Part shown: positions 6,001 to 22,413 of the stretch, piece by piece
How the letters are laid out: every line of letters begins with the position of its first letter
Position numbering within the stretch: position 1 is the stretch's first letter
Assembly: GCA_018812715.1 (NCBI GenBank)
Contig: JAHJCT010000017.1
Location: forward strand, 204,019 to 268,018
Source of the DNA: Candidatus Micrarchaeota archaeon
Lineage (GTDB): Archaea; Micrarchaeota; Micrarchaeia; Anstonellales; Bilamarchaeaceae
DNA length: 64,000 bases
Direction: 5' to 3'
The notes under the pieces: model-generated
The model's database searches: none
What the model was told of the DNA's origin: nothing
The model's input: only the letters and a program-made list of their open reading frames with translations
Program-made: the position numbers and the translations under genes

Positions 6001-6349
6001 GAGCCATAAAAGTAGCATTTTCATTTAATGGAGCTCCTCTGAAATCTTCATTATATATTCTCCAAAACAAGTCTCGTTGTGATTCGTTTCCAGTGATTAC
6101 ATAATTCCTATAAGCGTCAGCAGCTTCAGTGCCTCTTTGCTGAAGATACGTGACGTCCTCTGCTTCAATACGTCCCTGTTCTGCCATAGCTTCATTACCC
6201 CCGAAGTAGTTTATATTGGTAACGGTACCTACGCCAATGCTTGCAGAGAGAAAATACTTCATCCATCTCGAACGCTTTACCCGATCAAGAATGCCTTCAC
6301 GGCGAATCGTCTCTCGCTGTTCGCTATAACAAAGTTTTGCTCCTGCCAT
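1..6349 (-). CDS. giant protein A, partial (>2116 aa; continues beyond window start), unknown function
   Basis: ATG at 6349 with an in-frame stop just upstream (6353-6355). The track shows no complete minus-strand ORF between 1 and 6421, consistent with one frame running off the edge. I hand-translated both ends: N-term MAGAKLCYSEQRETIRREGILDRVKRSRWMKYFLSASIGVGTVTNINYF, window end ...LYGWNEDQARNAGWLIAANYMYGRLEGWVGENEPEEST. At least 8 in-frame copies of an RYGEEFV-type motif. Confidence 0.8.
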   Translation of the reverse strand, partial: MAGAKLCYSEQRETIRREGILDRVKRSRWMKYFLSASIGVGTVTNINYFGGNEAMAEQGRIEAEDVTYLQQRGTEAADAYRNYVITGNESQRDLFWRIYNEDFRGAPLNENATFMAHFSEEMERVREDPQVSALLEAYREDRRPLEPVVMVDFIDTLYNIRAGLARSIPNNDAVDELRERVETSTAVRADTDVGRVRALMEEGYTIDNAVRKELQRAAVEELSARYGENLTQLVITSMPAEQARIAIDHLRNFILTGDQTSRDEFVRIWNANTSDEFTDAFTEQFRERIYNDTASGLASITQNYNRIMSGIEPGEFATLVREVYNLAITGTRQDVDAHVQRFMRDVLRRDVSDTEITQMNEQVIGPLLDIVARGQAGHAIRLMNEVIATGSQQASNEFRGILNGRFLGRPIEENETFWNEFQALYRAELNNDETLAAIIRGFGRNILPIAIRDIYTELARETPDLDRLRTDYGPELVNVIIQNSRIDWLMRDGTQAERELSRRVGFEDTLALQLLEIDVENRGAALIEVYSALREERIRGNARLVQEGTIGHNVVQEMQTVEENFDQLSWVADMSPADAQGELERRTRTRRGEEADPLATALISRYGNNAGTVLTQAYSEVQTMRERRAELVSRYGEEFVNFVETNIENLHWLVLPIEQIEEGMRTRSEDAVVTQIQQNIGYTYGTFAIALHDIYENSTDRSRLVSRYGEELVGFVETNRAELEWLSGDVQSIETALQERTDETTRELRAGRIYSYGPVQLVAALARARQSINRGGVALVDARDALGTLFVRPVVSREVVTAPTVVIEGEGSRAIESRSHTIANDIGDIRRQLQYSVLEPARALLLERIRRWEIQNREIVRRSRLTSDAESLERLEQEQRTLSDSMLNPQELRRSVEMAYSLIHVAQTGGDLTRVTGAIGTVSVDVDSQELRELLDWFGSLTPEKQAVVEEIVASVLHGADPELYEFVGSMNERGFFNALTRTYAGLEESNRRDLVRNYGEEFVLLVEAHAPHLQFLESPGTTREDLRQGENVLFASILIRCHRALVNPQGEENRARMVELFGEEFVVAVEAQREHLAPLLESEVGLDQVRELPEDVRGELMAAYSSAYSRTIDVLTRTYLNQGEELFYALGAIYAVWLNEPAEGTREYERFQERIQMLNVAYGEDLVTLVHENMNALRFLERPSARVSELENIPEETLERLYSAFEEGPGATRANFMENYDHVARTLPGVYARLRNALLFSNPSDEFGTNFEQAVNIYRQEFGENNYLFNQYFNLELFRENLTRIGQQYHIDIPDYLQDEVTPEELARFFQTDAGRQLIRAGRTFYEGMETEYLLQRNETGFSPETGEFTDENVQQLRNELTILDAVYMGIALEGISGSGSAFQRAAATELMNTLLVISHRDPYLVGPYLLYVLPALLEVAQDERTLIAGMTAFRQMFTQRYAEGQRYLMYSNAINREYFLGVFRRIGEQLPEITSTFDHHRLEDEMRMVPEPMTDEGFISPFLYRQRPGWWQYDEEQLPTLYGQSGQPLSLLPRVTMPNGPMLGLNVLDSGAMGLFSNMYDQVRPPTDRMFRMGVPARYRIGALGSSTIIRRITQLFGAMPVNYQDYWLSGNAEGGMYYSVEGEEGSVTERGAALGEGQLRGITGGERWELQYTGERTEAEESVTGGHRVDYTGEAVGVPSPLTGPVPLPLLQLVPVDTFRRGEGVGIHRAREEFTYESSTGMVEGEEVTTAVRTDGLLESYQRIARESGTDMLFFVAGTYVPELLGPPTWRLTSDDITDMGVENPEDVNYSHINTLLDTSRNGETEEDREAAQEELDALLEGYGITMEDIENQTRDRLQEEQGEIRSRLFFITGEGDVYQLAFGRNTEAELMNYLYGGVNTQNILASLRFVGSEMLTEDSAAAGFDGAAVGFTIPTGDDGDTVSALLFGELVRNLSTMDPVHIEEATGMAVTNLLQSGRQRDVYAAFYRGAQTVELDPENPARVTDTHWAHGSGELMWRRMRVDPLSHSWEARLIGGYPATIGGRWRHEVPTSEHETYGYGVTVAYNEVDLLREYRVVEQEADEMYQNMTTMFVDLYGWNEDQARNAGWLIAANYMYGRLEGWVGENEPEEST

Positions 6350-6688: not shown

Positions 6689-6697
6689 TTATCTCAT

Positions 6698-6922
6698 CTA
6701 TAAAAGATGTTGATATTTACCTGTAAATTCTTCATCGCCAATTGTTTTCCTTTTTCCTTTTTTTGCTTCTTCATGAAGTTCTTTAAGTACTTTTATTGCC
6801 TTTTTATCTTCAAGTGGCCTTACTCCCAACCTTTCATGAACTTCCTCTTCTAAGTAATTGATAATATCTCTGCATTTAAGTAGTTCTTCATACTCTTGCT
6901 TAGATATTTTGATATACTCCAT
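6698..6922 (-). CDS. putative antitoxin partner (74 aa, charged helical protein)
   Basis: Small ORF immediately upstream of the RelE-like gene on the same strand. No family recognised. Confidence 0.35.
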   Translation of the reverse strand: MEYIKISKQEYEELLKCRDIINYLEEEVHERLGVRPLEDKKAIKVLKELHEEAKKGKRKTIGDEEFTGKYQHLL

Positions 6923-6967: not shown

Positions 6968-8533
6968 TCATTCTATTTGCAATACTCTTCTGCGCCTTGT
7001 CCCTTCATCTTGTGGTTGCGCTTCTGGCACTGTGACGTTTGGTATGCTCCTTGCCCAATCCCCAACAGTGGAAGTATGGTGATTCATTCTCCACGTATAA
7101 ACAGAAATAGCAGAAAGTGTTCTCATATCTATTATTCCATTAACATGAAGATCTGTTCGTGGAGTTCCTAATATGCTGTTATATAATAAGTTAAGATCTC
7201 CATTGAGGCTGTCAAACCATTCTTCATCTGTTCTAGTTGCTGAGAAATTTATGAATGCCTGCACTGCCCTTGCTACTAATCTTCTATCCGTGTCTGATGT
7301 GGTACTTCTTAAGCGTGTCGCTTCTCTTCCAACAGTTGCATATTCATCATGACTTTGTACAAATGCTAAAAACACCTCATCTTCATGCAGGTAGTCATTG
7401 AATATTCTCATAAAAGCATCATATACATCAGTTCTCTCTAATTCAGTTAATGCACTTTCTAAGGAATCGTATCCTTCCGGAAGAGTGCGCATGAGTGTTA
7501 TTATTGCCTCTGGCCTTCCCTGTTGCACTCCTTGATATAATTCAGTACTAAGATTGGCCCAATGGCTTTCAGCAAATTGTTGCAGTGGGGTTTGTCGTAC
7601 TTCGACTGCTAATACTTCTGTAGCTTGCCATACATCAATACTATCCTGGCTTACACCAGTTCCTGTTTCCAAATACCATCTTCTCAAATATAATGCAGCG
7701 GCTGTAAGTGTATCTGCATCCATTGCTACAGTACGGTATGTTCTGAGACTTTGCTCATTTCCAATTCTTGTATGAATCTCTGGTAATTGATCTATCTCTT
7801 GATGATATCTTGCATAATTTTCACGTGCTGCTTCAAATTCAAGAAGATAATACCGGGTAAAAGCAAGTGCTGTGTTTACCAAATTAGCATCTGCATTTAT
7901 CGCAAGTGTTGGGGGTTCTCCTTGTTCTGTCATATATGCCTGAAGCGCAGCATAATTCCCTCCTTCTCTTCCAGCAACAGATGAAAGGAATAATCTGAAT
8001 CTTGGTATTTGATAAAATTCATTGAAAATTGTAACTGCTGCTCCTCTTCTGTTTTCATCTGTAGAAAGAAATTGCTGAATGCGATCTCTGTTAGTGTGCA
8101 AGGTATTTACAGCATTCAATGCATCTGTGCTTCCTCTTGCTCTTAATTGCATTTGAATCCAATCAGTTGAAATTGTTGGTATTGGAGGTTGTTCTTCTAC
8201 TGTTTCTTCTCTTCTTTCTCGTCTGGGCCTTCTCTCACGCCTTGGTGCAGGTTCTTCTACAGCTGGTTCTTCTACTACAGGCTGAGGGTGCAGTTCTCCA
8301 TAAATACGTGTAGCTATTGCCGCTACATTTAATCCATCAATAGCATCAAAATCCTGATCTGCACATCTTCCGCTTGCCCAGTTTTTAGCGCGTCTCAGTT
8401 CTCCTTGCAGATCTTCAACGCTCATTTGATCGTTTACAGTTACTCCTGTGTTATACCTTCTTGCCTCTCCTTCTCCACCTGTACAAACTATTACTATCGT
8501 ATTATTTCGAAGCGTTACTCTGGCATCAACCAT
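6968..8533 (-). CDS. 521-aa Arg/Glu-rich, Lys-depleted protein of unknown function (giant-gene cluster member)
   Basis: ATG at 8533 shares one base with the TAA of the upstream 2854-aa gene (TAATG). PRRERRPRRERRE linker. Only one Lys by my count. The segment EDEVFLAFVQSHDEY resembles the repeat motif of protein A. Confidence 0.8.
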   Translation of the reverse strand: MVDARVTLRNNTIVIVCTGGEGEARRYNTGVTVNDQMSVEDLQGELRRAKNWASGRCADQDFDAIDGLNVAAIATRIYGELHPQPVVEEPAVEEPAPRRERRPRRERREETVEEQPPIPTISTDWIQMQLRARGSTDALNAVNTLHTNRDRIQQFLSTDENRRGAAVTIFNEFYQIPRFRLFLSSVAGREGGNYAALQAYMTEQGEPPTLAINADANLVNTALAFTRYYLLEFEAARENYARYHQEIDQLPEIHTRIGNEQSLRTYRTVAMDADTLTAAALYLRRWYLETGTGVSQDSIDVWQATEVLAVEVRQTPLQQFAESHWANLSTELYQGVQQGRPEAIITLMRTLPEGYDSLESALTELERTDVYDAFMRIFNDYLHEDEVFLAFVQSHDEYATVGREATRLRSTTSDTDRRLVARAVQAFINFSATRTDEEWFDSLNGDLNLLYNSILGTPRTDLHVNGIIDMRTLSAISVYTWRMNHHTSTVGDWARSIPNVTVPEAQPQDEGTRRRRVLQIE

Positions 8534-11500
8534 TAACGTTCCCCTCTTCTGCTAACATACTGCATGATATGATTACGCAGGCCATTTCTTGCAGTCCTTC
8601 TATCAACTTCTACACTTAAACCTTCTCCTTCACCACTTACAGTAAGTCCATATCCTTCACGTAATTGCATGTCTCTATCTATGGTGCTAGTAAGTAATCT
8701 GTACATCTCTGCTTTGATATCTGCTCTTACAACATCTCTTGCTCTTTCTCTTGTTTCAGCATCTTCTGAATTTATTTCAGGACCATATGCATTTACCATT
8801 GCCTGTGCATCCTCTGTTAATGTTCCATCATCGTTTCTAGCTTCAATCATTCTGTCTATTGTTCCATCCAACAATGGTGTTAATGTACTTTCTTCATTTG
8901 CATAAAATCTCTGTGCTTCAGGTGATAAAGTTGCTGGAGGTGCATGAACTTCTTCAACATCAATCTGATCCTCTCTTCTGGGAGTCATTACTTCAAATCC
9001 AGGCCGTCTAACATATTGTGCTTCAAATTCTTCTCCAACCGGCTCCACTGTTTCTTCTCTTGTTACAGTTCCTCTGCTTCTTTCTCTTTCTTCCCTGGCT
9101 TGTTCTTCAGCAGGTGTTGCTCCATCCCACCAGCCGTTTGATCTGTACACTGTAGCCCTGCGGTCTAGATATTCGTATATTTCAGTGTATCTTCCAGGTC
9201 CTGGGACAGTGCTATGTTGCGAAGCATCTTCTATTATTTCTAAAACATGCCCGCGGATATTGTCTCTGTGATCTAGCAGCCATCTCACAAAACCTAATCT
9301 TTCTTCATCTGATCTTTCTGCAATAAATGTAACTAAGTGTGCATTCTCAGGATCAAACAATCTTGGTTCCATATATCCAAGAACTGCTGAACCTACAAAG
9401 CCGCGTTGTCTTGCTGCTTCAACTGCTTCTCCTGGAGTTTCACTTTCTAATATTAATGCTGCAAGCTCTTGCGGATTTCCATAGATTGCGTCTCCTCCAA
9501 TAACTCTATTCTCTTCTCCGTATCTAATATCCTCAATATTAAATGCATTGAATGCAAGCAAGGCTTCATTATTTTCTCTATATTGATTGAGCAGTTGTTC
9601 ATATGTATCTCTGAATCCAGGATCAAGTGATGCCCTGACATCAAGCAATCCAAGGAATGAATTTTGTCTTATTCCTGTAACTGTTCCATCTTCTTCTATT
9701 ACTTCAATGTAAAGATTCTGTGATCTCAAATGTGCTTCAAGTACCTGATAGATATCTCTTTCACTAGTAACCTGTTGCCTTAATTCTGTTATCCTTCCTT
9801 CGCTTGTAAGATCATTCATTATATTATCTAAATATACACTGGGTATGTGTCCTCCTTGTACTGCTTCCCATAAGTAGGCAAATACATCTGTGTTTGAAGT
9901 AAGGAAATCTACTCTTTGTCCGCCTTCTCTTGTATATCTTCCGCTTTCCGCCTCCCCTTCACTGATCAAACCAGTATCTACACAGAATGCATCTGCAACT
10001 GCATCCCTGAAATCTATCACAAGTCCTCTTTCTCTCCATTGTGGTATACGCAGATCAAATAAATCCGTAATATCTACTTCTTCTTTTCTTTCTTGCGAAA
10101 GAATTCCTTGCACATCATCAACAGTCAATCCCCATGGTTCAAGGATTGCTGCAAGCTCTGCCTCTCTTCTATCTTCTGCATCTCCTCTCCTCATATCACT
10201 CAATAGATCATTTATGTCATCTAATCTTCCGCCCATCTCTCTTCCGTCAGCAACTATCTCTCCAAGTCTTCTTGGTTCTATTAGTATGTCTGTTCTTTGA
10301 AGCAATTGATTAAGATCTTCTACATTTCCAGGTCTCCTATCTCTACCTCTTGGAAGAGCATTGGGCATGTGGAAGAAGAATCGCCTCCCTTCTTCAGTTG
10401 CAAGCCATTCCAAATCTTCATCACTGGCTCCGGCACAAAGATTTCCAAAGTCTCTTTCGCATAGCCTTCTTCCTTCTTCAACTGATCCGGCACTATTAAG
10501 TGAATTGTACCATGGCAATAGAACATTATCCCACGCGTAATTTCCAATCACATACCAGGCTATAGCCTGCGGTATTAAGTAAGGAGAATTCCTTAATCCT
10601 GCTCTTATCCTCCCTCCCGGAACTGCATTTCTTATGGAATTAACAAATCTTCTTGCTCCCCAATTAGTGAGTGGTTCCCAATTGTTGAGAAATCTAAGAA
10701 TTCTCCATCCAATATTTATTGCATCGTCCCTTAATGGTCTTGTATCTCTTGCAAATACATCTGCAGCAGTGCTTGCTTGGTCTAAAACTTGATTTATTCT
10801 TGGTCTTAATGCATTTATTGCTGAAAATTCTTGTGCAAATGCCGGGTCTTGACTAATATTTCTTACAAAACCTTCTAACGGAGTTCTCATTTCTCTTGGC
10901 ACAAACTGTGGTTCTGCTCCTTCTACAGCTCTGCCTTGTTCCAATACATTCAATATCTCGTCTACAGTTCTATTATTTTGCACTGCATCTCTGTAAATCT
11001 CTGCAGCTTCCCTTCCATATCTTTCCCTTACTGCTCTTTCAACTTCAGGACTTCTCAGAATCTCAGTTAACACATCATTAACATTTCCACCTTGGGAACT
11101 ACGCTCAAGAAGAGTACGCCTAATTACATTTGTTACTGGTTCATCAGCTATTGGAATTTCTCTTATTCTTCCTTCCACACTGTTTTGAACTCCAGCCAAT
11201 TCGCGAACAAGCATCTGAGGCGGAATTATGTCACTACCTTCTAATCTAGGCAATAATGATGCTCTTTCCAGCGGCGTGTATTCAATTCCAAGCAATTCCT
11301 GTGTTCTTAAAAGCGGTGCCAATTCACCCCGTTGTGCTTCAATTGCCCTTATCATCACTTCTACATCATTTGCAGAAAATCCTTCACGTGCTTGCACTGC
11401 CATATAATCTTCAGGACTTATTCCAGCATTTCTTGCCCCGCTTTCAATTGTTCTTCCTGTTCTATTTAATATATCTCTAAGTACTGGATCTGTTTCAGCT

Positions 11501-14500
11501 AATGTTTCAAGTTGTGCCCTTACATTTGGCCTTGAGTATATGCGTCTTAATAAATTCCAATAGCCACTAGTCTCCCCTCTTGCCGTTTGTGCTGTGTCGT
11601 ATAAAGATTTCATGATATCTGCTATTCTCTGAGGACTAGAATTCAACAGGTTTTCAAGTTCTACTGCCTCTGTTCTTGCTGTTTGTGCTTCTTGCTCTGC
11701 AACCCTTATCTCTTCTGGTCTTGCCCCTCCTTCTCTAAGTTCTTCTACTCTGACTTCAAGTTCAGTAGCTCTTGTGCGTGCCCTACTTATTTCTAATTGT
11801 GCCAATTCAGGATCTAATACCATATCCAAAGTATTTCTAACTCCTTCGCCTGTTGTACTAAGTACTTCTTCAGCTTCAGGAAGTTCGGCCCTTGCATTTC
11901 TCTCTACTCTATCGCTTCTCCAATTTTGCCAGCGCTCTCTTCCAAATCTATACATTCGTTCAAAGCGTCCCCATCTTACTTCTGGTATTGGCCGAACTGG
12001 TCCACCACCTCCACCCTGGCCCCCACCAACGGTTGTATCAACAGGACCTATTCCTCCTTGTTGCACTCCTGGTGGCCTTGCTCCTCCCTCTTCAGCCATT
12101 GCTCTTACTTCAGGCATCTGCCTTATCATCATTGGACCTTCGCCTTCAACAAGATGAGGCCTGCGTGCCATTTCACTTGCAACAACATCTTCTATGTAAT
12201 AGTTGTAATCATTCACTGCCATTGCAACAGCTTCAGGTTCAAACATTGCTTCTATTTGTGATCTTGCATTTTCCAAAGCACGTTGTGAAAATGGAGTTGC
12301 TTCTCCAGTTTCAAAGTAATGCCTTACACTTGGATTCCTGATAAGTCCATCTATTATTTCTGCAACTTCAGGATTTTCTGCCCTTATATTCTCTAATGTT
12401 TGTTGTGCTGCAGCTCTATGAACTACATTTTCTCTTGCTGTTGTTCCTTCAGGTGTTAGCAATCCCTCAAGCAGCCAATCCAATCTTCCTGGCTGCAATG
12501 TTCCTGTGCTTTCAACTTCTGTTACTGGTCTTCCGCCTCTTGGCCCTGGCGTTGGAGGTTCTGGGCCTCTGAATATCATATCAATTACACTTGTCATATT
12601 TCCTCGTGCAAGTGGTGTCATTTCTCCTGTTACTAGGGCCTCTGGAACATGCATAAAGCTTGTATTTCCAATGCTGCCCGTCTCCATAAACTGCATTATT
12701 CTTCCTTGTACTTCCTCAGGCAGTGTTCTCAACCGTGCCTGTGCACCATCCCTTACAGTCGGGTCTTCACTTCTCAACTCTCTCATGAATTCAAACATTT
12801 CTTCTGGGGTTCGAAGTCTTTGTGCTTCTCTAACTGAAGGAATTTCATTAGGTTCTATTTCAATTGGAACCTCTCGCGGTTCCGGTGCCCTTATCTCTTC
12901 AGCTACAAGCTCAGTTTCTGTTCTTGCTTCTGTTGTTCCTCTTACTGGTCTGGCTCTCATAGCTTGCCATCCACGTGACCCTGCCATATGTGCCCATGGG
13001 AAAGCGGCCATTGCAGTTAGGAAAATTCCCTCCCGCATATTCCCTTCTGAAAAGGCATCAACTGCATGATATCCCATATATCCTGAGAAACCAACTCCAA
13101 TTCCAATGTTTGTATAATTAAGGGCTCTTACCACTTGTGTCATTCTAGTAGCATATGCAGTTCCTTGTGCAAACTGTGCTTCTGTACGTAAAACGCCTGC
13201 AAGTCCTCCGATACCCATAGTTGCTATTATCCCACCAAACATCAACCACGATGTCCAACTTGCTTCTCCTTGTACCCGGTATTCTGTAACTATCTGATCA
13301 AATGCCATAGTTGCAAAGAGCGACCCACCAAAAAGTTGTCCTCCAGGTACGAGACACGCTACAACCCCAACAGCAGTTAGTCCAACTGTAGTCCAAAATT
13401 GGTGGTCTGCTACTCGTTCCTGCATTCGATCTATGATTGCATTAGCATCATCAAATCTTCCCATGCCAACAAGGGCATATACATTGCCTTGATCGACAGC
13501 ATACTCTGCAAACATCTGGCTTCCTGAATCTGCAGGAATTGCGAATATTGATGCTTCAACAATTCTTGCACCATTCAAATCCAACTGCATTCTCTCTTGT
13601 GATCCAGACCCTCCTCTACCAAAGAGAATATAATGCATCGAATCTGTTTGCATTTCTCTGTAAGCATCCCAATAAGATCTATCTGGTTCGCTTCTCATAA
13701 ATTCTGCAAAATCTTCTGGGAAAAATATTGCCTCTCCTAATCGTTCTGCACCTTCAAGGAAGTTTTCAATACCTGTAGCAGTTAAATTCATCGCACTTCT
13801 TCCTTCATATGATGCCATAGCAGTTATCCTATGATCTATAGCAGCTTCATATGCTTCTTCAGCTTCCTGGAACCTTCCCTCCAAAATAAGATTTTGAGCT
13901 CTTTGCAAATCAGTATTACAATCTCTTAAATTATCTTCTGCTAAACTAAATCTATCTCCACCCCCAATTCTTATCATTCTTAGATATTCATCGTTTACTT
14001 CTATCTGCTGTCCTATCTGTGAATAAGCCATGGCTGCCCTGCTTTCTCCTTGCACTAATTCGAGCAGATAACTCATCACAGTTCCGCCTCTTAGCCCCTC
14101 TCCATATATTGGCAGATCATCTGTAGTATATTCTATCCCATCCATCTGTGTAAGCAGAGCATCTACTTCGGTAGAAAGATATATCACTTGCCTTAATCTT
14201 CCCATCTCAAGGTCTGATACTGCTCCAAATGTCTCTGGATGCTGTTCAATATAATCTGCCATTAAAGAAAGGCCATTGCTTGTTGTAGTAAATGCGCCTA
14301 CATCATGGCCATAATCCCATGCTGTTTGCCAAGCTCTTTCTCCTGTTGTTCCTCCTCCGCACATGTTTATGACATAAGCTCGGAATGCTTCAGTAAGTGC
14401 ATCATTTCCTTGCCTAAGTATTACTTCAGCATCTACTACTGTACTTCGTCTATGCACTCTTGTAGCAATTAATGACAATCGGTTCCAATATGTTTCACTT

Positions 14501-17097
14501 GCTTGTTCATATTCTCTTAAATTTCCACTAAAAGCCGCTTCTCTAAGTTCTTCAAGATCACTTCTTAAGCTATGCAATGGATAATCTCTGGCTATTGTTA
14601 AATCGCGCTCCCCATGACTTCTTTCATAACCTCTTATCTGTTCAGCAGTAACATATGCTGGAAATGTTCCATCCTCATTTCTTTCACCGAGTGGAATTTG
14701 TCCGGCTTCTACACCTTCTGCTATCGGCTCTCTTCCCCAGTAAATACCTGTTAATCTGTTATAATCAGCAATAAGCATTTCTGTTTGTACGATTCTTCTT
14801 GTTCCTCTATCAAACTGTTGTGCAGCTGCATAATGCTCTTCATCTGTTCCTGCATGCATTTCCATTTCTATTGCTTCAAGCATTATCCTTCTGCCTCTTC
14901 TGTATCCATATGGCACTTCTTCAGTTCCTTCTCGAATCATGCGTTCATGAGTAAATAGTTCATATCTCCAGCCTTCCTCTCTTCCTCCTTCAGCTGCACC
15001 ATAATAATCTCTTATATATTGCAGCAATAGATTTGCTCCCCGATAATCTCCAGCTTCGACTCTTTCTCTTACAATTCCTAATGCTTCATTTATTGTTGTT
15101 CTCCCAACTCCTCTTCTTTGTGCAAATGTCTCCAATCTGTTTGCTTCTGCTTCTATGTAAACTATCTGCGCTAAGTTGAAGCTTTCCATGAAGGCACCAT
15201 CATCACCTGGTTCGCCTTGTGCCATAGCCTGCAATTGTGTCTCCATTCCACTTAGGTGTATTGCATTTTCATCCGTAATTCTGGTGACTCTTCCATTGCT
15301 TACTACTCCAAGCCTTTGCACAGAATCAACATACATTGCAAGAAGTGTAAGTACTCTTGCTGCTTCTTGTGCATTCCCTTGTCTTGCAAGTTCTTCTGCA
15401 CGTTCAAGTGTTTGATTTACTATCCCTATCTGGAAAGTCATTCTTCTTGAACTCCAGTTTTCAATCAGTTCTCTGAATTGATCTGTTTCTCCTCTAACCT
15501 GGTGGTAAATCATTCCTATATTGAACTGCTCACTGGCATCTTCTCCTGCCATTTCACTTTGAAGTGCTTGTTCTATTGTTTCGCGTCCTTCCCAATCCCC
15601 CCAGCGATGCCCTTCATTTCTGTCATAATAAAATGAAATCATGTAAAGTAATCTTCTTGCTCCTTCGAAATCACCAAGCTTGAATCTTTCATCTGCAATG
15701 GCTGCTGCATTTCTGATAAGTTCTCTTCTCTCTTGCCCTCTTCTTCCTGTAATTGCTTGGAACCCTTCAATATCTACAAGCATGTGTGCCATGTCCATTT
15801 CAGTTGAATACTGTGCAAGCATTGATGAAGTAGGGCTTCTTCCTTCAATTATTATATTATATATTGTCTGATAACTCGGCAGATAATCTACTGCATGCCT
15901 ATCTAATTGTCTTGCAGACCGTTCAAGCAATCCTAAAGAAATGGCAAGTGCTGCAAGATTTCTATCTCCTCTTTGCAGTGCATCAAGTGCCTGTTGACCA
16001 TACCATTCCGGACTTTCTTCTGTTACTCTTCCTGTTCCACGTAAACTAGTAGCAATCATAGTCAGGTTTGCATCTCTTTCTTCTTCGCTTAATGGCATCT
16101 CTCTTCCAATTGTCATGAAATAGCTGGTTGTAATTCTTTCAAATTCCAACTGACCAATTATTTGTCCTTGTTCAAGTCTTCTGATTATTTCATCTAGTTC
16201 ATGCCTGAGATTTTCCATTTGCTGTCTCATCTGTTCATTTGTCTGTTGTTCTATTGCAAGTGCTATCTCATCTCTCCATTGGCTGAAGACTGTTGTGTTT
16301 ATCTCAGTCCATTGGTCCTTTATTGTTCCTATATTAGCTTCAAAAGACCAAAGCGATTGTCTATCTTCATGTTCCTGTTCACTAGTATACCCAATCCTTT
16401 GCCTCCCCTGGTTTCCTCTCTCCACTATAAAACCAAAGAGTGCATTTCTTTCCATTTCTACAGCTGAATTGTCGATATTGTAAATAGGAATATTCTCAAC
16501 GTACAATCTCCCTGCTTTTAGTACTGCCTCTGCTCTGCCGTGATTTGTTGTTGCAATATCTAATACAGAAGCTTCCAGGCTATCAAAAATAGTTTCAAGT
16601 GCATCTTCTGATTCCACGCCAGGAATCTGAATATTTTCAGGCATGCCCCCCGTTAGCATATGTAATTCTATATCAAATACATCTCCGACTGTTCTGAGCA
16701 TTGCCCTTGATCTTGTTATCATGTGGAATGATGCAGCAATGTTTCCTTCTCCACCAGTTGTTCTTGCATCATTTAATATCTGCTGAACTAAATCGAGTTC
16801 ATCCGTATACCTTTCTCCAAGTATTGGCAGTGCAGTTACTCTTAATCTCACTTGTTCCAATGTTTCTTCTGTTCTTTCTACTTCTGAATTAATGTATTCA
16901 ATAGTTGCATCATCAGGCCTGACAGTTAAGGTTCGCGCATGATCCTGGAGTGCACTAATCTCTCCAAGCACTTCATCCAATCCCTGTTCTAATTCTCTTC
17001 TTTGTTCATCCATTGCTTCTATTCTTGTTGGAATGATTGCAATTGGTAATCGTGTAATCTCCTCCTCTTCAGGTCTTTCTATTGTTGTTCCTCCCAT
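8533..17097 (-). CDS. giant protein B (2854 aa), unknown function, with a central multi-pass hydrophobic block and a conserved C-terminal domain
   Basis: Uninterrupted 8.5-kb ORF with ATG at 17097 and a strong SD. Helical TPR-like repeats (GDYRGANLLLQYIRDYY, GDFEGARRLLYMISFYY, GRFQEAEEAYEAAIDH). About 5 hydrophobic helices around aa 1235-1400. Trp-rich segment AIAWYVIGNYAWDNVLLPWY. C-terminal YRLLTS...YGLTVSGEGE domain shared with the 1463-aa protein. Confidence 0.9.
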   Translation of the reverse strand: MGGTTIERPEEEEITRLPIAIIPTRIEAMDEQRRELEQGLDEVLGEISALQDHARTLTVRPDDATIEYINSEVERTEETLEQVRLRVTALPILGERYTDELDLVQQILNDARTTGGEGNIAASFHMITRSRAMLRTVGDVFDIELHMLTGGMPENIQIPGVESEDALETIFDSLEASVLDIATTNHGRAEAVLKAGRLYVENIPIYNIDNSAVEMERNALFGFIVERGNQGRQRIGYTSEQEHEDRQSLWSFEANIGTIKDQWTEINTTVFSQWRDEIALAIEQQTNEQMRQQMENLRHELDEIIRRLEQGQIIGQLEFERITTSYFMTIGREMPLSEEERDANLTMIATSLRGTGRVTEESPEWYGQQALDALQRGDRNLAALAISLGLLERSARQLDRHAVDYLPSYQTIYNIIIEGRSPTSSMLAQYSTEMDMAHMLVDIEGFQAITGRRGQERRELIRNAAAIADERFKLGDFEGARRLLYMISFYYDRNEGHRWGDWEGRETIEQALQSEMAGEDASEQFNIGMIYHQVRGETDQFRELIENWSSRRMTFQIGIVNQTLERAEELARQGNAQEAARVLTLLAMYVDSVQRLGVVSNGRVTRITDENAIHLSGMETQLQAMAQGEPGDDGAFMESFNLAQIVYIEAEANRLETFAQRRGVGRTTINEALGIVRERVEAGDYRGANLLLQYIRDYYGAAEGGREEGWRYELFTHERMIREGTEEVPYGYRRGRRIMLEAIEMEMHAGTDEEHYAAAQQFDRGTRRIVQTEMLIADYNRLTGIYWGREPIAEGVEAGQIPLGERNEDGTFPAYVTAEQIRGYERSHGERDLTIARDYPLHSLRSDLEELREAAFSGNLREYEQASETYWNRLSLIATRVHRRSTVVDAEVILRQGNDALTEAFRAYVINMCGGGTTGERAWQTAWDYGHDVGAFTTTSNGLSLMADYIEQHPETFGAVSDLEMGRLRQVIYLSTEVDALLTQMDGIEYTTDDLPIYGEGLRGGTVMSYLLELVQGESRAAMAYSQIGQQIEVNDEYLRMIRIGGGDRFSLAEDNLRDCNTDLQRAQNLILEGRFQEAEEAYEAAIDHRITAMASYEGRSAMNLTATGIENFLEGAERLGEAIFFPEDFAEFMRSEPDRSYWDAYREMQTDSMHYILFGRGGSGSQERMQLDLNGARIVEASIFAIPADSGSQMFAEYAVDQGNVYALVGMGRFDDANAIIDRMQERVADHQFWTTVGLTAVGVVACLVPGGQLFGGSLFATMAFDQIVTEYRVQGEASWTSWLMFGGIIATMGIGGLAGVLRTEAQFAQGTAYATRMTQVVRALNYTNIGIGVGFSGYMGYHAVDAFSEGNMREGIFLTAMAAFPWAHMAGSRGWQAMRARPVRGTTEARTETELVAEEIRAPEPREVPIEIEPNEIPSVREAQRLRTPEEMFEFMRELRSEDPTVRDGAQARLRTLPEEVQGRIMQFMETGSIGNTSFMHVPEALVTGEMTPLARGNMTSVIDMIFRGPEPPTPGPRGGRPVTEVESTGTLQPGRLDWLLEGLLTPEGTTARENVVHRAAAQQTLENIRAENPEVAEIIDGLIRNPSVRHYFETGEATPFSQRALENARSQIEAMFEPEAVAMAVNDYNYYIEDVVASEMARRPHLVEGEGPMMIRQMPEVRAMAEEGGARPPGVQQGGIGPVDTTVGGGQGGGGGPVRPIPEVRWGRFERMYRFGRERWQNWRSDRVERNARAELPEAEEVLSTTGEGVRNTLDMVLDPELAQLEISRARTRATELEVRVEELREGGARPEEIRVAEQEAQTARTEAVELENLLNSSPQRIADIMKSLYDTAQTARGETSGYWNLLRRIYSRPNVRAQLETLAETDPVLRDILNRTGRTIESGARNAGISPEDYMAVQAREGFSANDVEVMIRAIEAQRGELAPLLRTQELLGIEYTPLERASLLPRLEGSDIIPPQMLVRELAGVQNSVEGRIREIPIADEPVTNVIRRTLLERSSQGGNVNDVLTEILRSPEVERAVRERYGREAAEIYRDAVQNNRTVDEILNVLEQGRAVEGAEPQFVPREMRTPLEGFVRNISQDPAFAQEFSAINALRPRINQVLDQASTAADVFARDTRPLRDDAINIGWRILRFLNNWEPLTNWGARRFVNSIRNAVPGGRIRAGLRNSPYLIPQAIAWYVIGNYAWDNVLLPWYNSLNSAGSVEEGRRLCERDFGNLCAGASDEDLEWLATEEGRRFFFHMPNALPRGRDRRPGNVEDLNQLLQRTDILIEPRRLGEIVADGREMGGRLDDINDLLSDMRRGDAEDRREAELAAILEPWGLTVDDVQGILSQERKEEVDITDLFDLRIPQWRERGLVIDFRDAVADAFCVDTGLISEGEAESGRYTREGGQRVDFLTSNTDVFAYLWEAVQGGHIPSVYLDNIMNDLTSEGRITELRQQVTSERDIYQVLEAHLRSQNLYIEVIEEDGTVTGIRQNSFLGLLDVRASLDPGFRDTYEQLLNQYRENNEALLAFNAFNIEDIRYGEENRVIGGDAIYGNPQELAALILESETPGEAVEAARQRGFVGSAVLGYMEPRLFDPENAHLVTFIAERSDEERLGFVRWLLDHRDNIRGHVLEIIEDASQHSTVPGPGRYTEIYEYLDRRATVYRSNGWWDGATPAEEQAREERERSRGTVTREETVEPVGEEFEAQYVRRPGFEVMTPRREDQIDVEEVHAPPATLSPEAQRFYANEESTLTPLLDGTIDRMIEARNDDGTLTEDAQAMVNAYGPEINSEDAETRERARDVVRADIKAEMYRLLTSTIDRDMQLREGYGLTVSGEGEGLSVEVDRRTARNGLRNHIMQYVSRRGER

Positions 17098-17101
17098 TTT
17101 T

Positions 17102-17108
17102 TCACCTC
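17102..17108 (-). promoter_or_regulatory. Shine-Dalgarno-like GAGGTGA upstream of the giant protein B start
   Basis: The minus strand reads GAGGTGAAAAAATG. The element overlaps the TGA of the preceding small ORF. Confidence 0.5.
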
Positions 17109-17421
17109 AAGTATATTCCTTACACATAAGTACAAAATCCTGCAGCCTCTCAAGTCTCGCCTTTTCATTATCTTTTCCTTTCACTGCTTTTTTCTGCCAT
17201 TCAACCAGCTCATCATGGAATTTTCTTATTTTTTCTATCTGTGGCTCCATACTCCTGCTTTTTACCTTTGAAGCCTCCCATTTTGCAAGGAATTTTTCTA
17301 TTACAGTAATAGTATGATTTACCCTGTTTATTGTATTTTTTTCAACAGAAGCAGCATCAGTCTTAACAGGTATTTTCTTCTTGGAGATTTTTTTCTTTTT
17401 TGAAGATTTTTTCTTAGCCAT
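17107..17421 (-). CDS. small Lys-rich protein (104 aa from the ATG), unknown function
   Basis: ATG at 17421 is preceded by AGGTG (the track start at 17430 is GTG). MAKKKSSKKKKISKKKIPVK N-terminus. Composition is typical of the host genome, unlike its giant neighbours. Confidence 0.5.
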   Translation of the reverse strand: MAKKKSSKKKKISKKKIPVKTDAASVEKNTINRVNHTITVIEKFLAKWEASKVKSRSMEPQIEKIRKFHDELVEWQKKAVKGKDNEKARLERLQDFVLMCKEYT

Positions 17422-17511: not shown

Positions 17512-20500
17512 TTATTCATTTTCTCTGCCTACAAAGCTCAGAGTGTGTCTCTCTATGCCTCTTCTGGCTCTTCCCATATCTGTTATTTGAACAGCGAACT
17601 CTTCGCCTTCACCACTTACAGTGAGTCCATAGTCAGTACGGTGCTGTACGTCCCTTCGTATATCACTTGTAAGAAGTCTATACCACTCTGCTCTTATTGC
17701 CATTTCAGTTTGTTCTCTGTTCCCTTCAAATGCACTTCTTAGCAATTGACCGTCTTCTCCTTCATCAGTGAAGAGCCTTTCCAGGGTTCCGTCCAACATG
17801 CTGTTAAAGTCATTTTCAATAGTATAGAACTGTTGAGCCTCAGCGTTCAATTCTGTACCACTTCTCTCAGTTCCAGTTCCTCTAAATCTTTCTACTTCAT
17901 TGATGTATCCTGTATCAACAGCCCACTGTACACGAACACCTTGTGGATCTGAGAATGGATTATAGTCAGATACATTTCCACCATCTGCTTTGTGCCTTTG
18001 CAGTTCTTCAACAAATTCTTCAAGACGGTATCTGTTGAGTCTGTATCGTGCACCTCTGGTATCGACAAAGCTTGTCAGGAGCTCTCTTATATCCTGGTTT
18101 GTTGGCGCAAGAAGAGTGTATGCCATGCTATCTGAAATATCAAATTCAGAAAGTTCTCTTCTTAACTCCCTTCTTGCATATTGTTCAGAGGTATCTTCAA
18201 CCCATCCATTTGTTCTTGCAGTTGCCATTGCTTCATTGAATGTTTCTTCTAACATTACATCAGTTACAGGAACACGTCTTGTTTGCAATGTTTGTCCTTC
18301 CCCAGCTCTTGCTTGTGTTTTTTCTTCCCAAAGAGTAACAAATGCTTCTCTATTTTCTGGTTTGAGGTACTCGGTATGCTCTCCCCTTTCAGCCACTAAT
18401 GGAAGCATAAGTCTTCCTACTCTATCTCTTCCTTGTGCAAAGACAAAATCCACTAATCCAAGATCTGCTATATTATAATTATCCATTACTCTTTCTTGTT
18501 GCTCAGATACGAGGAATCCTCTTTCTACCCATTGCCTTGTATGTTCATTCATATAGTCATAGTCAACTGTTGCCCTCGTTCCCTCTTGTGCCATTAAATA
18601 ATCAACAAATTCATTTGTCATATTCCTGTTGAGTTTAAGGCCATCGGTTATCACAGTATATTCTACATCGATTATACAACAGAACTGATTTCCTGATTCC
18701 CATTCATCTTCAATTGCTAGTGGTTCCCAGTTTTCTACATCATCCATACTTTCAATACCAAGTTCTCTGCATGAATTAGGTATTACTAATCCCGGTGTTG
18801 CTGGAGGCCTTTCAACTGCTTCTCCTGTTCCCTCGGCTACTTCATTAGTTCCTTCAGCTACCTCGCCAGTTCCTTCTGCATTTTCTTCTCTAGGCGGAGG
18901 TTGTGCTCTAGAGGTAGAACCTGCACTTGTTTCCTGAGAACAATTAGCTATGTCATCATCATCCAGTTCGTTTACATCTCTAACATGTTTCAATGTTCTT
19001 CTCTCTTGGAAGAATGTAAGAACACCTTCATTATCATGTTCAACTTGATTATCCCTTAGCCAGTCTAATCTTTCCTCACCTGTAACTCCATATGCAGTTG
19101 TGTAATAACTATCCTCTCTTTCTGCAAGTCGTTCTGGAATGTCGTAACTATCATTTATCATTCTCTTATTTGAGAGCTCACCTTGCATCGGAGACCACCA
19201 TTCCCAAGGTGCTCGGTCGAAGTGGTTTCCAAAATGATTAAAGCTCCAACGCCATGGCATCGCATTCCATGAGAATGGATTGTACCAATGACCTGTAGTT
19301 GATGTACCAATGCGATAGGTCCAAGGTTTGTACCATGCTCCGTTTGGTGTTGTTGTCATCCATTCATTTGGTGATGTGAACCATGCAACACCAAAAGATC
19401 CTATCAAGTATGCTTTGAGTGCTCCTTTCCAAAGTCCCCTCAACCATCTCGGGTAATGTTGGTATGTGTGAGCCTTTCCTGTAATTGGATTTCTACCAAC
19501 AACTTGCTTATTCCAATTTCGTTTCTTAAGATCATCAACTGTTTCTCCAAAGCCCCAACTTGAAAGTCTTCTAAGACGCCCACCTCTAAAATTACCTTGT
19601 GACTTTCCTATCCATGCTTCGCTTGTAAATAATCTCCAGAACCATTTATCTTTGAACTTTTGCCATTTTCCTACAGTTACTTTTGGAGACGGATCCCAGC
19701 TTTCTTTTGTAGCTTCCCAGATCGTTCTTGCTATAACAAATTGACCTTGAGGTATTTCACCTAAGTTTTCAGCAGTTCTTTTATGAAGCATTTCAACTGA
19801 TTTTTCAGCTGCTTTTCCTAATGGCTTGGAATACTTATTTTCTATTTTTACCAGCATCTCTTCTAATGAAGCACGAGGATACTTTCTAGTTTCTATTGCC
19901 TTTACAACTGTCAGCATTCTTTTTCTTACTTCATCAGGCAATTCTGCTCCTTCTACTTTTGTTCTTAATGCAGTTGCTTTTGTATCAAATGCTTCAAGCT
20001 TATATCTGAAAAGTTCTTCGCTTTCACCTTTACCTTTTCGTTCTTGTATCACTGCATCATATTCTGCTTTAGTAATACTTCTTGCTCTAAGCAGTTCATC
20101 CAATTGTTCTGCAGTTTTTGTTCTCAATCCTTGTTCTGTTGAAGGAATACCAAACAATTGCTGGCAGTCGTCCATACGATCAAGAACTTTCTTTGTATCT
20201 TTCATCAATTCACTGATAACTGGATTGCCTAGCCACTCTCCTGCTCTATTTGGAAGTTCATGAATTAATTCTGTACTCACTTCTCTGCAGTCAAGCATAT
20301 GCTTTTTGAAGTTTTCAGAGTATGTCCGTACTACATTTTCAAATCTGCCATTTTCAGTTCCTTGTATTCCACCTAATTCTGCTGAAAGTGTATCAAATAT
20401 TTCTTTTGCTTGAGTATACTCGTCCTCTATTCTCGCCCCCCTAGCAGACAAACTCAGTCCACGGGTATTAAATTCACTAATTCGCTGTCTTGCAATTACT

Positions 20501-21903
20501 AATTCTTGTTCTGCAGTATCCTTCTCTTCAGTAGCTTTTCTTTCTGCATCCTCAATCTGTTTTTGTGTTGCTTTTGCCTTTCCTTCTGCAACAAGCTGTT
20601 TTAGTTTTACAACTTTATCATACTGTTCTGTTTTTTCTACAACAGTTGCTTCGGCTCGTTCAACCAGTCTCTCTGCATCTGCCCTTTCGTTTCTAAATTC
20701 TGAAATTTCGTCATCTATTGCATCTACTCTTGCTGCACTTTCTTCCATGACGCTTTCAGCAGCAGCTCTCCGTACCATCATGTCTTCAACAGTTTGTCGT
20801 TGGCTTGGTCTGCATGGTCCAAATCCTTCAACATCAACAAAATGACCTGTTCCTGGAATACCTAGCCCTTCAACTGTCTCATTTGTAGGTGTTAAAAGAA
20901 TTGCACGAACGAATTGCCTGAAATTATCTGCAGCCATATCTATTGCTATAGATGTTCTTGATTCAAGATAAGCATCCACATAACTTCCATCAAGTACACG
21001 ACGATTAGTTTCTTGAGTATTCTCCGAGTCCATGCTTCTGGTCCCAGAAAGTTGCTTTAAAACACTACCTATGAATTCTCCTTCTTTTCCTGGGCTGAGT
21101 CTTTGTGCGACATTTTCAAGAAATCTAAAGAATGCGTCTGGAGGTAACGCTACTCCTTCTGGCCATGTTTCATGAGTCCACAATGATTCATATAATTTAT
21201 CTCCCCTTTCATCTCTTACACAATTTCCTTGTTCATCTTCTTGCTCAATCGGATTCCCCTTATCATCTAATTTAAATCTAGATCCGATCATTTGCGAATA
21301 AATAATATCAATTCTATCAGCATCAAAATCTTCGACTCTTCCTTCACTTAACTCTTGAGCAAGTCTTTGCCTTACGGCATACATTCTTTCTGCATACGCA
21401 GTATCAAGTTCTTCAAGCGGTGTCGGCACCGTCGGTTTCTTCAACCCATCAATAAATTCTTTTCTGCATACAATCTCTCTTATAAGCATATCAAAGCCAG
21501 AACTTGTCCTGCCCTGTCCTCTTCGTATTGCATCTACCAATTCTAATGTAAATTTAGTCAAATACTCTGCATTTGCTGTATCAGCACCGCTTTGCGGGGT
21601 TCCTCCGGCACCATGCCGTGTATCTTTATCTTGCCCTCGTTCTCCTCTCAGTTCTTTTAATCTTTCTTCTTTAGCAAATTCAATTCTTGCGTCTTTATCT
21701 GCTCTTTTTCGAGCTTTATGATCTTTTCTTAATTCAGGACTTAATGCAGCCCCCAGAACGGGCACTCTCTCTGCCATATATTTGTAACTCTTTGCAGAGC
21801 GACTTTCTCCACCTCTTGCCCAATCAAATACTCTTTGCCTTATACCAGCTTTCTCAGCCTGTTTATCTCTTCCCTGAGCCCTATCTATAACACTACCCGT
21901 CAT
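17512..21903 (-). CDS. giant protein C (1463 aa), unknown function, with coiled-coil N-terminal part, extremely Trp-rich segment and conserved C-terminal domain
   Basis: ATG at 21903 with GGAGG 12 nt upstream. About 18 Trp in ~150 aa (KWQKFKDKWFWRLF...PWRWSFNHFGNHFDRAPWEWW). C-terminal AEWYRLLTSDIRRDVQHRTDYGLTVSGEGE matches protein B. Confidence 0.9.
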   Translation of the reverse strand: MTGSVIDRAQGRDKQAEKAGIRQRVFDWARGGESRSAKSYKYMAERVPVLGAALSPELRKDHKARKRADKDARIEFAKEERLKELRGERGQDKDTRHGAGGTPQSGADTANAEYLTKFTLELVDAIRRGQGRTSSGFDMLIREIVCRKEFIDGLKKPTVPTPLEELDTAYAERMYAVRQRLAQELSEGRVEDFDADRIDIIYSQMIGSRFKLDDKGNPIEQEDEQGNCVRDERGDKLYESLWTHETWPEGVALPPDAFFRFLENVAQRLSPGKEGEFIGSVLKQLSGTRSMDSENTQETNRRVLDGSYVDAYLESRTSIAIDMAADNFRQFVRAILLTPTNETVEGLGIPGTGHFVDVEGFGPCRPSQRQTVEDMMVRRAAAESVMEESAARVDAIDDEISEFRNERADAERLVERAEATVVEKTEQYDKVVKLKQLVAEGKAKATQKQIEDAERKATEEKDTAEQELVIARQRISEFNTRGLSLSARGARIEDEYTQAKEIFDTLSAELGGIQGTENGRFENVVRTYSENFKKHMLDCREVSTELIHELPNRAGEWLGNPVISELMKDTKKVLDRMDDCQQLFGIPSTEQGLRTKTAEQLDELLRARSITKAEYDAVIQERKGKGESEELFRYKLEAFDTKATALRTKVEGAELPDEVRKRMLTVVKAIETRKYPRASLEEMLVKIENKYSKPLGKAAEKSVEMLHKRTAENLGEIPQGQFVIARTIWEATKESWDPSPKVTVGKWQKFKDKWFWRLFTSEAWIGKSQGNFRGGRLRRLSSWGFGETVDDLKKRNWNKQVVGRNPITGKAHTYQHYPRWLRGLWKGALKAYLIGSFGVAWFTSPNEWMTTTPNGAWYKPWTYRIGTSTTGHWYNPFSWNAMPWRWSFNHFGNHFDRAPWEWWSPMQGELSNKRMINDSYDIPERLAEREDSYYTTAYGVTGEERLDWLRDNQVEHDNEGVLTFFQERRTLKHVRDVNELDDDDIANCSQETSAGSTSRAQPPPREENAEGTGEVAEGTNEVAEGTGEAVERPPATPGLVIPNSCRELGIESMDDVENWEPLAIEDEWESGNQFCCIIDVEYTVITDGLKLNRNMTNEFVDYLMAQEGTRATVDYDYMNEHTRQWVERGFLVSEQQERVMDNYNIADLGLVDFVFAQGRDRVGRLMLPLVAERGEHTEYLKPENREAFVTLWEEKTQARAGEGQTLQTRRVPVTDVMLEETFNEAMATARTNGWVEDTSEQYARRELRRELSEFDISDSMAYTLLAPTNQDIRELLTSFVDTRGARYRLNRYRLEEFVEELQRHKADGGNVSDYNPFSDPQGVRVQWAVDTGYINEVERFRGTGTERSGTELNAEAQQFYTIENDFNSMLDGTLERLFTDEGEDGQLLRSAFEGNREQTEMAIRAEWYRLLTSDIRRDVQHRTDYGLTVSGEGEEFAVQITDMGRARRGIERHTLSFVGRENE
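18820..18882 (-). repeat. three tandem 21-bp units encoding (V)AEGTxE heptads inside giant protein C
   Basis: Plus-strand units ttctcctgttccctcggctac / ttcattagttccttcagctac / ctcgccagttccttctgcatt. Protein reads AEGTGEVAEGTNEVAEGTGEA. Confidence 0.7.
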
Positions 21904-21990: not shown

Positions 21991-22413
21991 TTATAATCTT
22001 TCCTTAACTAGCTCAACGAATTTCTTTGCATTTTCTAATGCCTTTTCTGCTTCTTCTTTTCCTACACTATCTGATTCTCCATATACGACGTCATGCCGTC
22101 TTACTCGATACCGATTAAATGTATTTGCTAATCCGATCGACTCTGCTGGAAAGACTGCTGCACAGAATTGAACTACCGCGAGATGATGGGCCTCTGATAC
22201 TGGCATATATCCTTTATACGTCATCAAAGCCCTACCAGCAGATAGCATAGCATTATACGCTATTGCCAGTGCCCAATCATAATTCTTATTTTTCAAATTA
22301 TCTGATGCTACCCTCAGGTCTCTTTCTGCCATCAATAGTATCTCTTTAGCTTTTTCTCTATCGCTTTCCACTTTTCTTACTAAATCCTTCTTTAACAATT
22401 CTGCTAAATTCAT
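21991..22413 (-). CDS. HEPN domain protein (toxin half of a HEPN/MNT pair)
   Basis: All-helical 141 aa from the ATG at 22413 (the track start at 22428 is TTG). Rx4-6H-like motif RYRVRRH. Located downstream of, and overlapping, a nucleotidyltransferase gene. Confidence 0.6.
   Translation of the reverse strand: MNLAELLKKDLVRKVESDREKAKEILLMAERDLRVASDNLKNKNYDWALAIAYNAMLSAGRALMTYKGYMPVSEAHHLAVVQFCAAVFPAESIGLANTFNRYRVRRHDVVYGESDSVGKEEAEKALENAKKFVELVKERL

Follow-up and report, generated by a model that had tools for sequence, protein, structure and literature searches.

A tryptophan-rich segment of a giant Micrarchaeota protein as a probable membrane anchor with unusually long aromatic belts

The closest described counterparts of the element treated here are transmembrane helices that carry aromatic belts and follow the positive-inside rule. 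In the ordinary case, such belts are a few residues long at either helix end. The element in question is a Trp-rich segment in protein C, one of three giant proteins (A, B and C) encoded in a 64,000-nucleotide stretch of DNA (hereafter the window; positions 204,019 to 268,018 of contig JAHJCT010000017.1 in assembly GCA_018812715.1) from a Candidatus Micrarchaeota archaeon, a member of the DPANN archaea known as a metagenome-assembled genome (MAG) of unpolished metagenomic sequence. This segment is probably (at a probability of about 0.7) the membrane anchor of a bitopic protein C, made of one helix with long interfacial Trp belts on both sides. It is like the ordinary case in its helix of about 20-25 aa, in Trp at both helix ends, in the basic residues found on one side and in flanks of favourable interfacial energy. 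It differs in that the Trp enrichment of the C family extends over about 60-100 residues per side and reaches 5-9%, in that the outer belt consists of repeated, sequence-conserved WYxPW(T/S)W-like motifs, and in that the core is moderately hydrophobic and rich in small residues. The segment itself is a known kind of element, unusual in belt length and Trp density.

A conserved Trp cluster beside a transmembrane helix is also found in the MPER (membrane-proximal external region) of class I viral fusion glycoproteins such as HIV-1 gp41 and coronavirus spike (PMC4521866, PMC7809034, PMC10671605). As in these proteins, the cluster of C is predicted to be interfacial and, judging from the charge bias in C, would lie on the external side. 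However, the viral region stands before the helix of a type I protein, whereas the region of C follows its helix in a putative N-in/C-out protein and is accompanied by a second, cytoplasmic belt. Protein C lacks both a fusion peptide and a heptad-repeat hairpin and has no similarity in sequence or fold to the viral proteins; the resemblance is positional only, and C does not qualify as a protein of the MPER type.

Among archaea, the nanohaloarchaeal SPEARE giants have 8,880-9,409 aa and, besides a Sec signal peptide, possess domains of the Ig-like/fibronectin-like kind and an ATPase domain resembling VirB4/TraG (PMC10266531). Like them, C is very large and acidic, is probably membrane-anchored with large extracellular parts, belongs to a host-dependent, nano-sized DPANN archaeon and may be suspected of a role at the host interface. 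Unlike them, C has 1463 aa and is part of a multi-gene cluster, and it has no Pfam or NCBIfam match, none of the SPEARE domains and no signal peptide. A fourth comparison concerns lysine deserts, conserved stretches free of lysine whose proposed role is to escape lysine-directed tagging, as by ubiquitin in eukaryotes and in pupylating bacteria; the papers found on them do not treat archaea (PMC10169902, PMC10665810). A long, conserved near-absence of Lys, with Arg at about 10%, is shared by A, B, a 521-aa open reading frame (ORF) downstream of B and the putatively exported half of C. In contrast to the known deserts, those described here lie in archaeal proteins of thousands of residues that are apparently exported or located at the surface, and they are likened by composition. 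As for aromatic-repeat modules that bind glycans or cell walls, e.g., choline-binding repeats and carbohydrate-binding modules, no Pfam family at E <= 0.1 covers aa 742-908 of C, and no NCBIfam family does so.

The tryptophan-rich segment of protein C

The gene for protein C lies at 17512..21903 on the reverse strand of the window, as do all the features of the giant-gene region given below, and its 1463-aa product, taken from the ORF list and translation, is identical to P0001 or KKB44_03070, a hypothetical protein in NCBI. A and B are likewise identical to KKB44_03040 and KKB44_03060, respectively, and no Pfam, PHROG or NCBIfam model matches any of the three above threshold. Bases 19180-19680 encode aa 742-908 of C and hold 19 Trp in 167 aa. 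The sequence-only reading of this DNA had counted about 18 Trp in about 150 aa here, and the clustering is confirmed: the best 150-aa window of C (aa 754-903) has 18 Trp, a density reached by none of 20,000 residue shuffles of C (mean 7.6, maximum 14). In a protein that is very acidic overall, the segment forms a basic, acid-poor island, with D+E at 4.8% vs 17.8% overall and K+R at 14%. A DNA tandem repeat beneath the repeated WYxPW motifs was looked for and none was found. Protein C is the Trp-richest family member seen; of its 19 Trp, only six stand in aromatic columns that the family conserves, and three fall within a lineage-specific insertion that is absent from most relatives.

A HMMER search with aa 700-1463 of C as the query, run over 1.84 billion representatives, yielded 73 relatives, 54 of them below 1e-10; family members mostly have 1100-1800 aa. 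A word-based protein search returned no protein other than C. Where members are named or verified, they are all archaeal or from Micrarchaeota, and a scan of GTDB genomes with a degenerate DNA motif gave ten matches, comprising five true members, all archaeal, and five bacterial chance matches. Among named or verified members, the C family is confined to Micrarchaeota and other uncultured archaea. The family alignments used below contain 43 C-type (A1), 6 B-type and 12 A-type proteins, and a smaller one (A2) contains nine C-type members.

The center of the segment, aa 819-843 (RWLRGLWKGALKAYLIGSFGVAWFT; 19375..19449), is predicted to form a single transmembrane helix. In an AlphaFold2 (AF2) model built with the family alignment it is a 25-residue helix (q120-144), with a predicted local distance difference test score (pLDDT) of about 78-88 by 10-residue block. 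Across the C family, the Kyte-Doolittle hydropathy of the helix core in a 19-residue window (KD19) ranges up to 2.17 around a median of 1.48, being >=1.2 in 34 and >=1.6 in 13 of the 43 members; Gly, Ala and Ser make up 34% of the core, and acidic residues vanish from it (D+E 0.8% in the helix bin). Basic residues are distributed asymmetrically: K+R in the 15-aa flanks amounts to 3.51 on the N side vs 1.30 on the C side, with N exceeding C in 37/43 members, and in 20-aa bins of the family aligned on the helix it is 24% before vs 9.7% after. Trp is enriched on both sides in the same alignment, at 4-8% in positions -100..-40 and 5-9% in +20..+80, against 0-0.6% further upstream and about 2% downstream. 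Moreover, the Trp-richest 150-aa window holds the most hydrophobic 19-mer in nearly every full-length member. The characters by which a bitopic protein was scored here, namely a spanning hydrophobic helix, positive-inside asymmetry and aromatic ends with favourable interfacial energy, are thus all found.

The region on the presumptive cytoplasmic side (aa 742-818; 19450..19680) is rich in Trp and Lys/Arg and ends in the basic stretch YPRWLRG. Up to aa 823, it contains 7 Trp, 18 K+R and 5 D+E, and W747 and W764 stand in family-conserved aromatic columns; the AF2 model places helices at q47-60 and q77-93 and a beta hairpin at q101-119, with pLDDT of about 52-88 by 10-residue block. Directly after the helix, the outer region (aa 844-908; 19180..19374) is rich in Trp and Pro, with 10 Trp in 65 aa, and shows the WYxPW(T/S)W-like motifs AWYKPWTY, HWYNPFSW, PWRWSF and APWEWW. 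Here conserved aromatic columns hold W873, W879, W900 and W902, and residues 848-861 represent the insertion, missing in 80-98% of relatives. In the whole of C, only three Wimley-White interfacial windows fall below -3 kcal/mol, and all three are inside the segment, at aa 754 (-4.4), aa 824 (-6.2) and aa 873 (-8.4 kcal/mol). The last of these is also the strongest window of the whole protein on the octanol scale (-8.7 kcal/mol).

The composition of C changes at the helix as well. K/(K+R) falls from 0.44 before it to 0.10 behind it, and the same switch occurs in nine further members; a compositional change exactly at the helix is expected if the two halves of C occupy different compartments. 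No N-terminal signal peptide was found in C or its relatives, and the N-terminus of C is polar and has no hydrophobic stretch. Therefore, an internal signal-anchor would be the simplest route of export.

From the helix, its charge bias and its interfacial flanks we infer membrane insertion and an N-in/C-out orientation. In the proposed arrangement, the N-terminal ~740 aa, helical and coiled-coil-like, would stay in the cytoplasm, one Gly/Ala/Ser-rich helix at aa ~819-843 would split C into two halves, and a folded C-terminal module of ~555 aa would be exported. The inner belt would correspond to the Trp/Lys/Arg-rich region with its basic end, and the outer belt to the Trp/Pro-rich region with its WYxPW(T/S)W-like motifs. 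Since Trp side chains prefer the lipid-water interface, the belts would hold the helix in position and keep the adjoining chain flat against the membrane on either face. The segment may in this way provide the first topology model for a family without annotation, with a cytoplasmic N-terminal half and an exported module that has no fold match.

Several observations weigh against this assignment. The helix of C itself is marginal in hydropathy, with a KD19 of 0.96 and two lysines in its core, and only the 13 relatives mentioned above reach the classical threshold of 1.6. The outer Trp-rich stretch has a pLDDT of about 40, which makes its model uncertain. Furthermore, the helix reaches only -3.0 kcal/mol on the octanol scale, against the minimum of -8.7 kcal/mol at aa 873, so that C may possess a second, re-entrant membrane element. 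Finally, the density of N-glycosylation sequons is the same in both halves of the C family; since the two halves do not differ, the sequons give the orientation no independent support.

Beyond the helix, members of the C family have one to several WYxPW(T/S)W-like motifs followed by RxIxDSYDIPERLxxRGxxYYxxAYGVG. In C, this best-conserved motif of the family (R-M-I-N-D-S-Y-D-I-P-E-R-L...Y...G; aa 914-939; 19087..19164) opens the C-terminal module. R914, I916, D918, D921, P923, L926, R929, Y934 and G939 are invariant in the nine members of A2, and D918 and R929 are invariant in 43/43 of A1. The module (aa 909-1463; 17515..19179) is lysine-poor, with 6 K vs 54 R, and is modeled by AF2 confidently as a globular alpha/beta unit (~555 aa, pLDDT mostly > 90). 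It would lie outside the cell. No fold relative of it was detected in PDB or BFVD (best BFVD E 0.5); a PDB profile search gave coiled-coil noise only, and the segment alone had no PDB sequence match. Four Cys columns (C aa 988, 1045, 1075 and 1076; window 18676-18941 region), with the consensus CS...C..LG...VCCTI, are kept in 32-34 of the 43 members and could represent two disulfides or a metal site.

Other explanations, and the blocks of proteins A and B

By analogy with a region of fusion glycoproteins or with a re-entrant loop, the Trp stretch might be a membrane-active element that works on another membrane, such as that of the host, and perturbs, bridges or fuses bilayers at the symbiont-host contact. 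Residues 868-892 have the best interfacial and octanol energies in C (-8.4 and -8.7 kcal/mol), and their prolines argue against a plain helix. In HIV gp41 and other viral glycoproteins, Trp-rich sequences beside the transmembrane helix are membrane-active and fusion depends on them (PMC4521866, PMC7809034), and coronavirus spike has an aromatic-rich pre-transmembrane region (PMC10671605). Micrarchaeota are, moreover, DPANN archaea that attach to a host in close cell-cell contact (PMC11329633, PMC8784108), and the gene is one of a conserved cluster that encodes giant and partly exported proteins. However, C has no hallmarks of fusion proteins and no viral fold or sequence match (best E 0.5 in BFVD; PDB), and its presumably exported module is globular and not a long coiled-coil hairpin. 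In addition, Trp is equally enriched on the cytoplasmic side, where an outward fusion element would have no need of it, and distant family members lack the giant partners. Such an activity is therefore considered unlikely.

Another possibility is that the segment is a soluble aromatic surface that binds glycans, the S-layer or a partner such as A or B, with the helix buried in the protein core or in an oligomer interface. The moderate hydrophobicity of the core in C and many relatives and its small residues, which are typical of helix-helix packing, would agree with burial; the Trp, Tyr, Pro, Asn and His of the outer stretch resemble carbohydrate-binding surfaces, and AF2 predicts a small folded unit of helices and a hairpin just before the helix. 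Nevertheless, no carbohydrate- or cell-wall-binding Pfam family was found in the segment, 13 relatives have a core KD of >= 1.6 and up to 2.17, and the positive-inside bias (37/43), the acid-free core and the lysine switch are all left unexplained. A soluble role is accordingly rather improbable.

The sequence-only reading had gone further and proposed one homologous Trp/Tyr-belted block in A, B and C at equivalent positions, with homologous C-terminal parts after it. Conserved blocks do exist at the places that it had named. The block of B covers aa 2125-2201 (10495..10725) and includes a family-conserved aromatic helix at aa ~2174-2202, with W2146 and W2181 invariant in the 6 B-family members, a KD19 of 0.50-0.66 and energies of -7.1 (interfacial) and -6.4 kcal/mol (octanol); AF2 of B aa 2050-2854 with 6 sequences predicts a helix at q125-153 with low confidence. 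The block of A covers aa 2074-2116 (2..130), has a KD19 of <= 0.32 and bears a polar motif, LYGWxEDEARxTGWLxAxxYMYxRLExW, that is conserved in the A family only. The distances to the C-terminus are in favor of equivalence, being 676 aa for the B block, 640 aa for the C helix and 734 aa for the A block, as are the similar lengths of A (2824 aa) and B (2854 aa).

Neither block matches that of C, however. Pairwise Smith-Waterman comparisons gave z scores of -0.45, 0.74, -0.21 and 0.50, with 228-664 of 1000 shuffles reaching the observed scores; alignments no better than shuffled controls were what the sequence-only reading itself had named as speaking against its proposal. In hhalign with full-length families, C and B were linked through the last ~110 aa only, plus a weak middle match, and the blocks stayed unpaired; when restricted to the blocks, the best hit (E 0.17) was downstream of the block, and a global run again left the blocks unpaired. 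The supposed common core, A-x-x-W/Y-h-h-x-x-N/S-Y/F-x-aromatic, is present in strict form only in B (AIAWYVIGNYAW) and in loose form in A, and fails in C. Among relatives it occurs in 1/6 of the B family, 2/12 of the A family (loose form) and 0/43 of the C family; the three-protein motif is a post hoc construction. Nor are A and B Trp-rich in the manner of C, as their best 150-aa windows are at the chance level (7 Trp in B, reached by 17% of shuffles, and 8 in A, reached by 11%). The A block is polar, and the blocks of the B family are weakly hydrophobic (KD 0.1-1.1) and show no charge asymmetry. The membrane-interface character that had been suggested for a core common to all three proteins is supported for C only, by its helix, positive-inside bias, Trp of 4-9% on both sides and interfacial minima.

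What B and C reliably share, as judged from sequence comparison, is the last ~110-130 aa. The C-terminal domain of C (aa 1352-1463; 17515..17850), the only part reliably homologous to B, matches B aa 2724-2853 with 40% identity (BLASTP E 1.5e-17; hhalign probability 98.6%, E 4.9e-16), and an H-H-E-E-H pattern recurs in the AF2 models of the two proteins. This common domain, together with a weak collinear match in the middle of the two proteins (E 0.015-0.035 for B vs C; E 7e-4 for C vs P0016), speaks for a shared block. At the sequence level the three-protein model is nevertheless largely refuted, and a homologous block in A, B and C is regarded as highly improbable; the block of B may be an analogue of the C segment and is not a demonstrated homologue.

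Protein A constitutes a separate family of eleven relatives with 40-57% identity, most of them 2750-3030 aa long, and all those carrying a source name are from Micrarchaeota. With full-length A as the query, the sole BLASTP match to B or C pairs A 1796-1844 with B 2295-2340 (E 5e-4), and hhalign of the A family against B and C gives a probability of <= 16%, with a 40-aa motif in B. The prediction that A would run about 700 aa beyond the window was right (2824 aa in full, 708 of them beyond the window), and the accompanying prediction of a tail like those of B and C was not, as these residues, A aa 2117-2824, resemble neither B nor C in BLASTP or profile comparison. Because this tail is unrelated to B or C, the correct length estimate does not rest on homology. 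Three proteins thought to share one block are thus to be re-sorted, with A as a family apart and B and C having a terminal domain in common. No family or fold was assigned to the tail of A. It is aromatic-rich, with Phe/Tyr stretches at ~2213-2280 and 2651-2680, and ends in ...APPSWWFGLYGRIEW (P0002); the last ~150 aa look like alternating-strand sequence.

That the segment of C is a compositional fluke or a product of frame or assembly error is a negligible possibility, open to any unpolished MAG in general terms, since none of the 20,000 shuffles reproduces it, an independent Logan assembly from the same sample (run SRR2540949) differs by 1 mismatch in 24,392 bases, the ORF is continuous, and at least 43 relatives conserve the segment and align through and beside it.

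The giant-gene cluster and its lysine avoidance

The gene for C is followed by a small ORF of 104 aa (17107..17421; gene call in L001 and translation), the gene for B (8533..17097; KKB44_03060, 2854 aa), the 521-aa ORF (6968..8533), whose start overlaps the stop of B, and the gene for A, of which the window edge leaves the first 2116 of 2824 aa (1..6349; KKB44_03040, or P0002). The family of C is in this way part of a conserved giant-gene cluster with at least ~21.6 kb of coding sequence here (~7,770 codons), in host-dependent DPANN archaea. Two other Micrarchaeota contigs (L002 and L003) have FtsY, a C-type gene, a gene of 104-107 aa and a B-type gene in the same order. In L002 (5387-28703) and L003 (10001-17513), a C-type gene of 1380 or 1509 aa comes after ftsY and a block of ribosomal-protein, eIF6 and prefoldin genes; the B-type gene encodes 2900 aa in L002 and 847 aa in L003, where the contig end cuts it. 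Only L002 extends further, with an 833-aa gene in the position of the 521-aa ORF and then an A-type gene of 2857 aa. As the gene order recurs in other Micrarchaeota, the locus is a conserved chromosomal cluster and not an island, and an origin from a mobile element was rejected, the same order being found elsewhere after ftsY and the ribosomal-protein block. Distant members of the C family are also found where the giant partners are absent.

Two toxin-antitoxin-like pairs lie beside or inside the cluster. One, upstream of C (21991-22966), consists of a nucleotidyltransferase (Polbeta/NTP_transf_2) and a HEPN protein, and the other, between the 521-aa gene and A (6422-6922), of a small antitoxin-like ORF and an 88-aa RelE/ParE-like ORF. 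The equivalent positions in L002 and L003 have no toxin-antitoxin pairs, and these two pairs are the only parts of the cluster that look inserted.

The relatives of B comprise three proteins from the word search and two (P0079 and P0086) from the HMMER search. The middle of B (aa ~1232-1375; 12973-13404) has four or five hydrophobic helices with KD19 up to 1.91, and because of this cluster of helices B would be a polytopic membrane protein. At the N-terminus of A (window ~6200-6349), half of the 12 A-family proteins (P0002-P0013) begin with a basic stretch, ~20 weakly hydrophobic residues and a conserved (V/A)MAQP, and the other six are called from the internal Met of (V/A)MAQP. This leader may be a Sec-type signal peptide with an AxA-type cleavage site and, because of the resemblance, A is probably exported.

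Lysine is nearly absent from these proteins. There are 5 K in the first 2116 aa of A, three of them in the leader, 6 K in the 2854 aa of B, which is lysine-free on both sides of its hydrophobic helix cluster, and 1 K vs 53 Arg in the 521-aa ORF, with Arg at ~10%. K/(K+R) in A, B and the 521-aa ORF is 0.02, compared with 0.5-0.86 in neighbouring genes of this 38% GC genome. The depletion is kept in 10/11 A relatives and 4/5 B relatives, and it is lineage-specific, as the A relative P0004 and the B relative P0015 have normal lysine. In C it concerns only the half after the helix (17515-19179). The 104-aa ORF, which has no family match, is the compositional opposite of its neighbours, with 24 Lys and an N-terminal KKKSSKKKKISKKK run. 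The sample of run SRR2540949 is a biofilm from deep terrestrial subsurface water (PMC5364579), and a habitat effect (halophily or acidophily) was rejected as the reason why the proteins are acidic and poor in lysine, given this groundwater biofilm source and the lysine-rich housekeeping neighbours.

The onset of Lys depletion at the anchor of C links the topology of C to the near-absence of lysine in its giant neighbours and leads to a hypothesis on their exposed parts. The Trp-rich anchor may be the exit point of C, and the three giants may form, together with the 104-aa and 521-aa proteins, a conserved surface or host-contact apparatus that is specific to Micrarchaeota and encoded beside ftsY. 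Its exposed parts would then have been purged of lysine against lysine-directed attack, be it by host or environmental proteases, by ubiquitin-like tagging after host entry or by amine-reactive chemistry, and the outer belt would act on a partner membrane in the way of an MPER. Taken as a whole, this scenario is speculative and unlikely to be correct in all its parts. The surrounding cluster and the lysine avoidance are even so more intriguing leads than the anchor itself.

The giant-gene region (window 1-22000) also stands out in its nucleotide composition, with a GC content of 0.40-0.43 vs 0.34-0.40 in the rest of the window and a strongly negative GC skew throughout. The higher GC agrees with a replacement of Lys codons by Arg codons. 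Archaeal markers in the window include fibrillarin, L31e, eIF6, prefoldin, FtsY, Cdc48, Elp3 and HerA. Apart from the cluster, two large right-handed beta-helix proteins with Beta_helix and NosD repeats are encoded at 30797-33862 on the forward strand (1021 aa) and at 56459-60028 on the reverse strand (1189 aa). Both are low in Lys and Arg (1-2% each) and are probably surface proteins.

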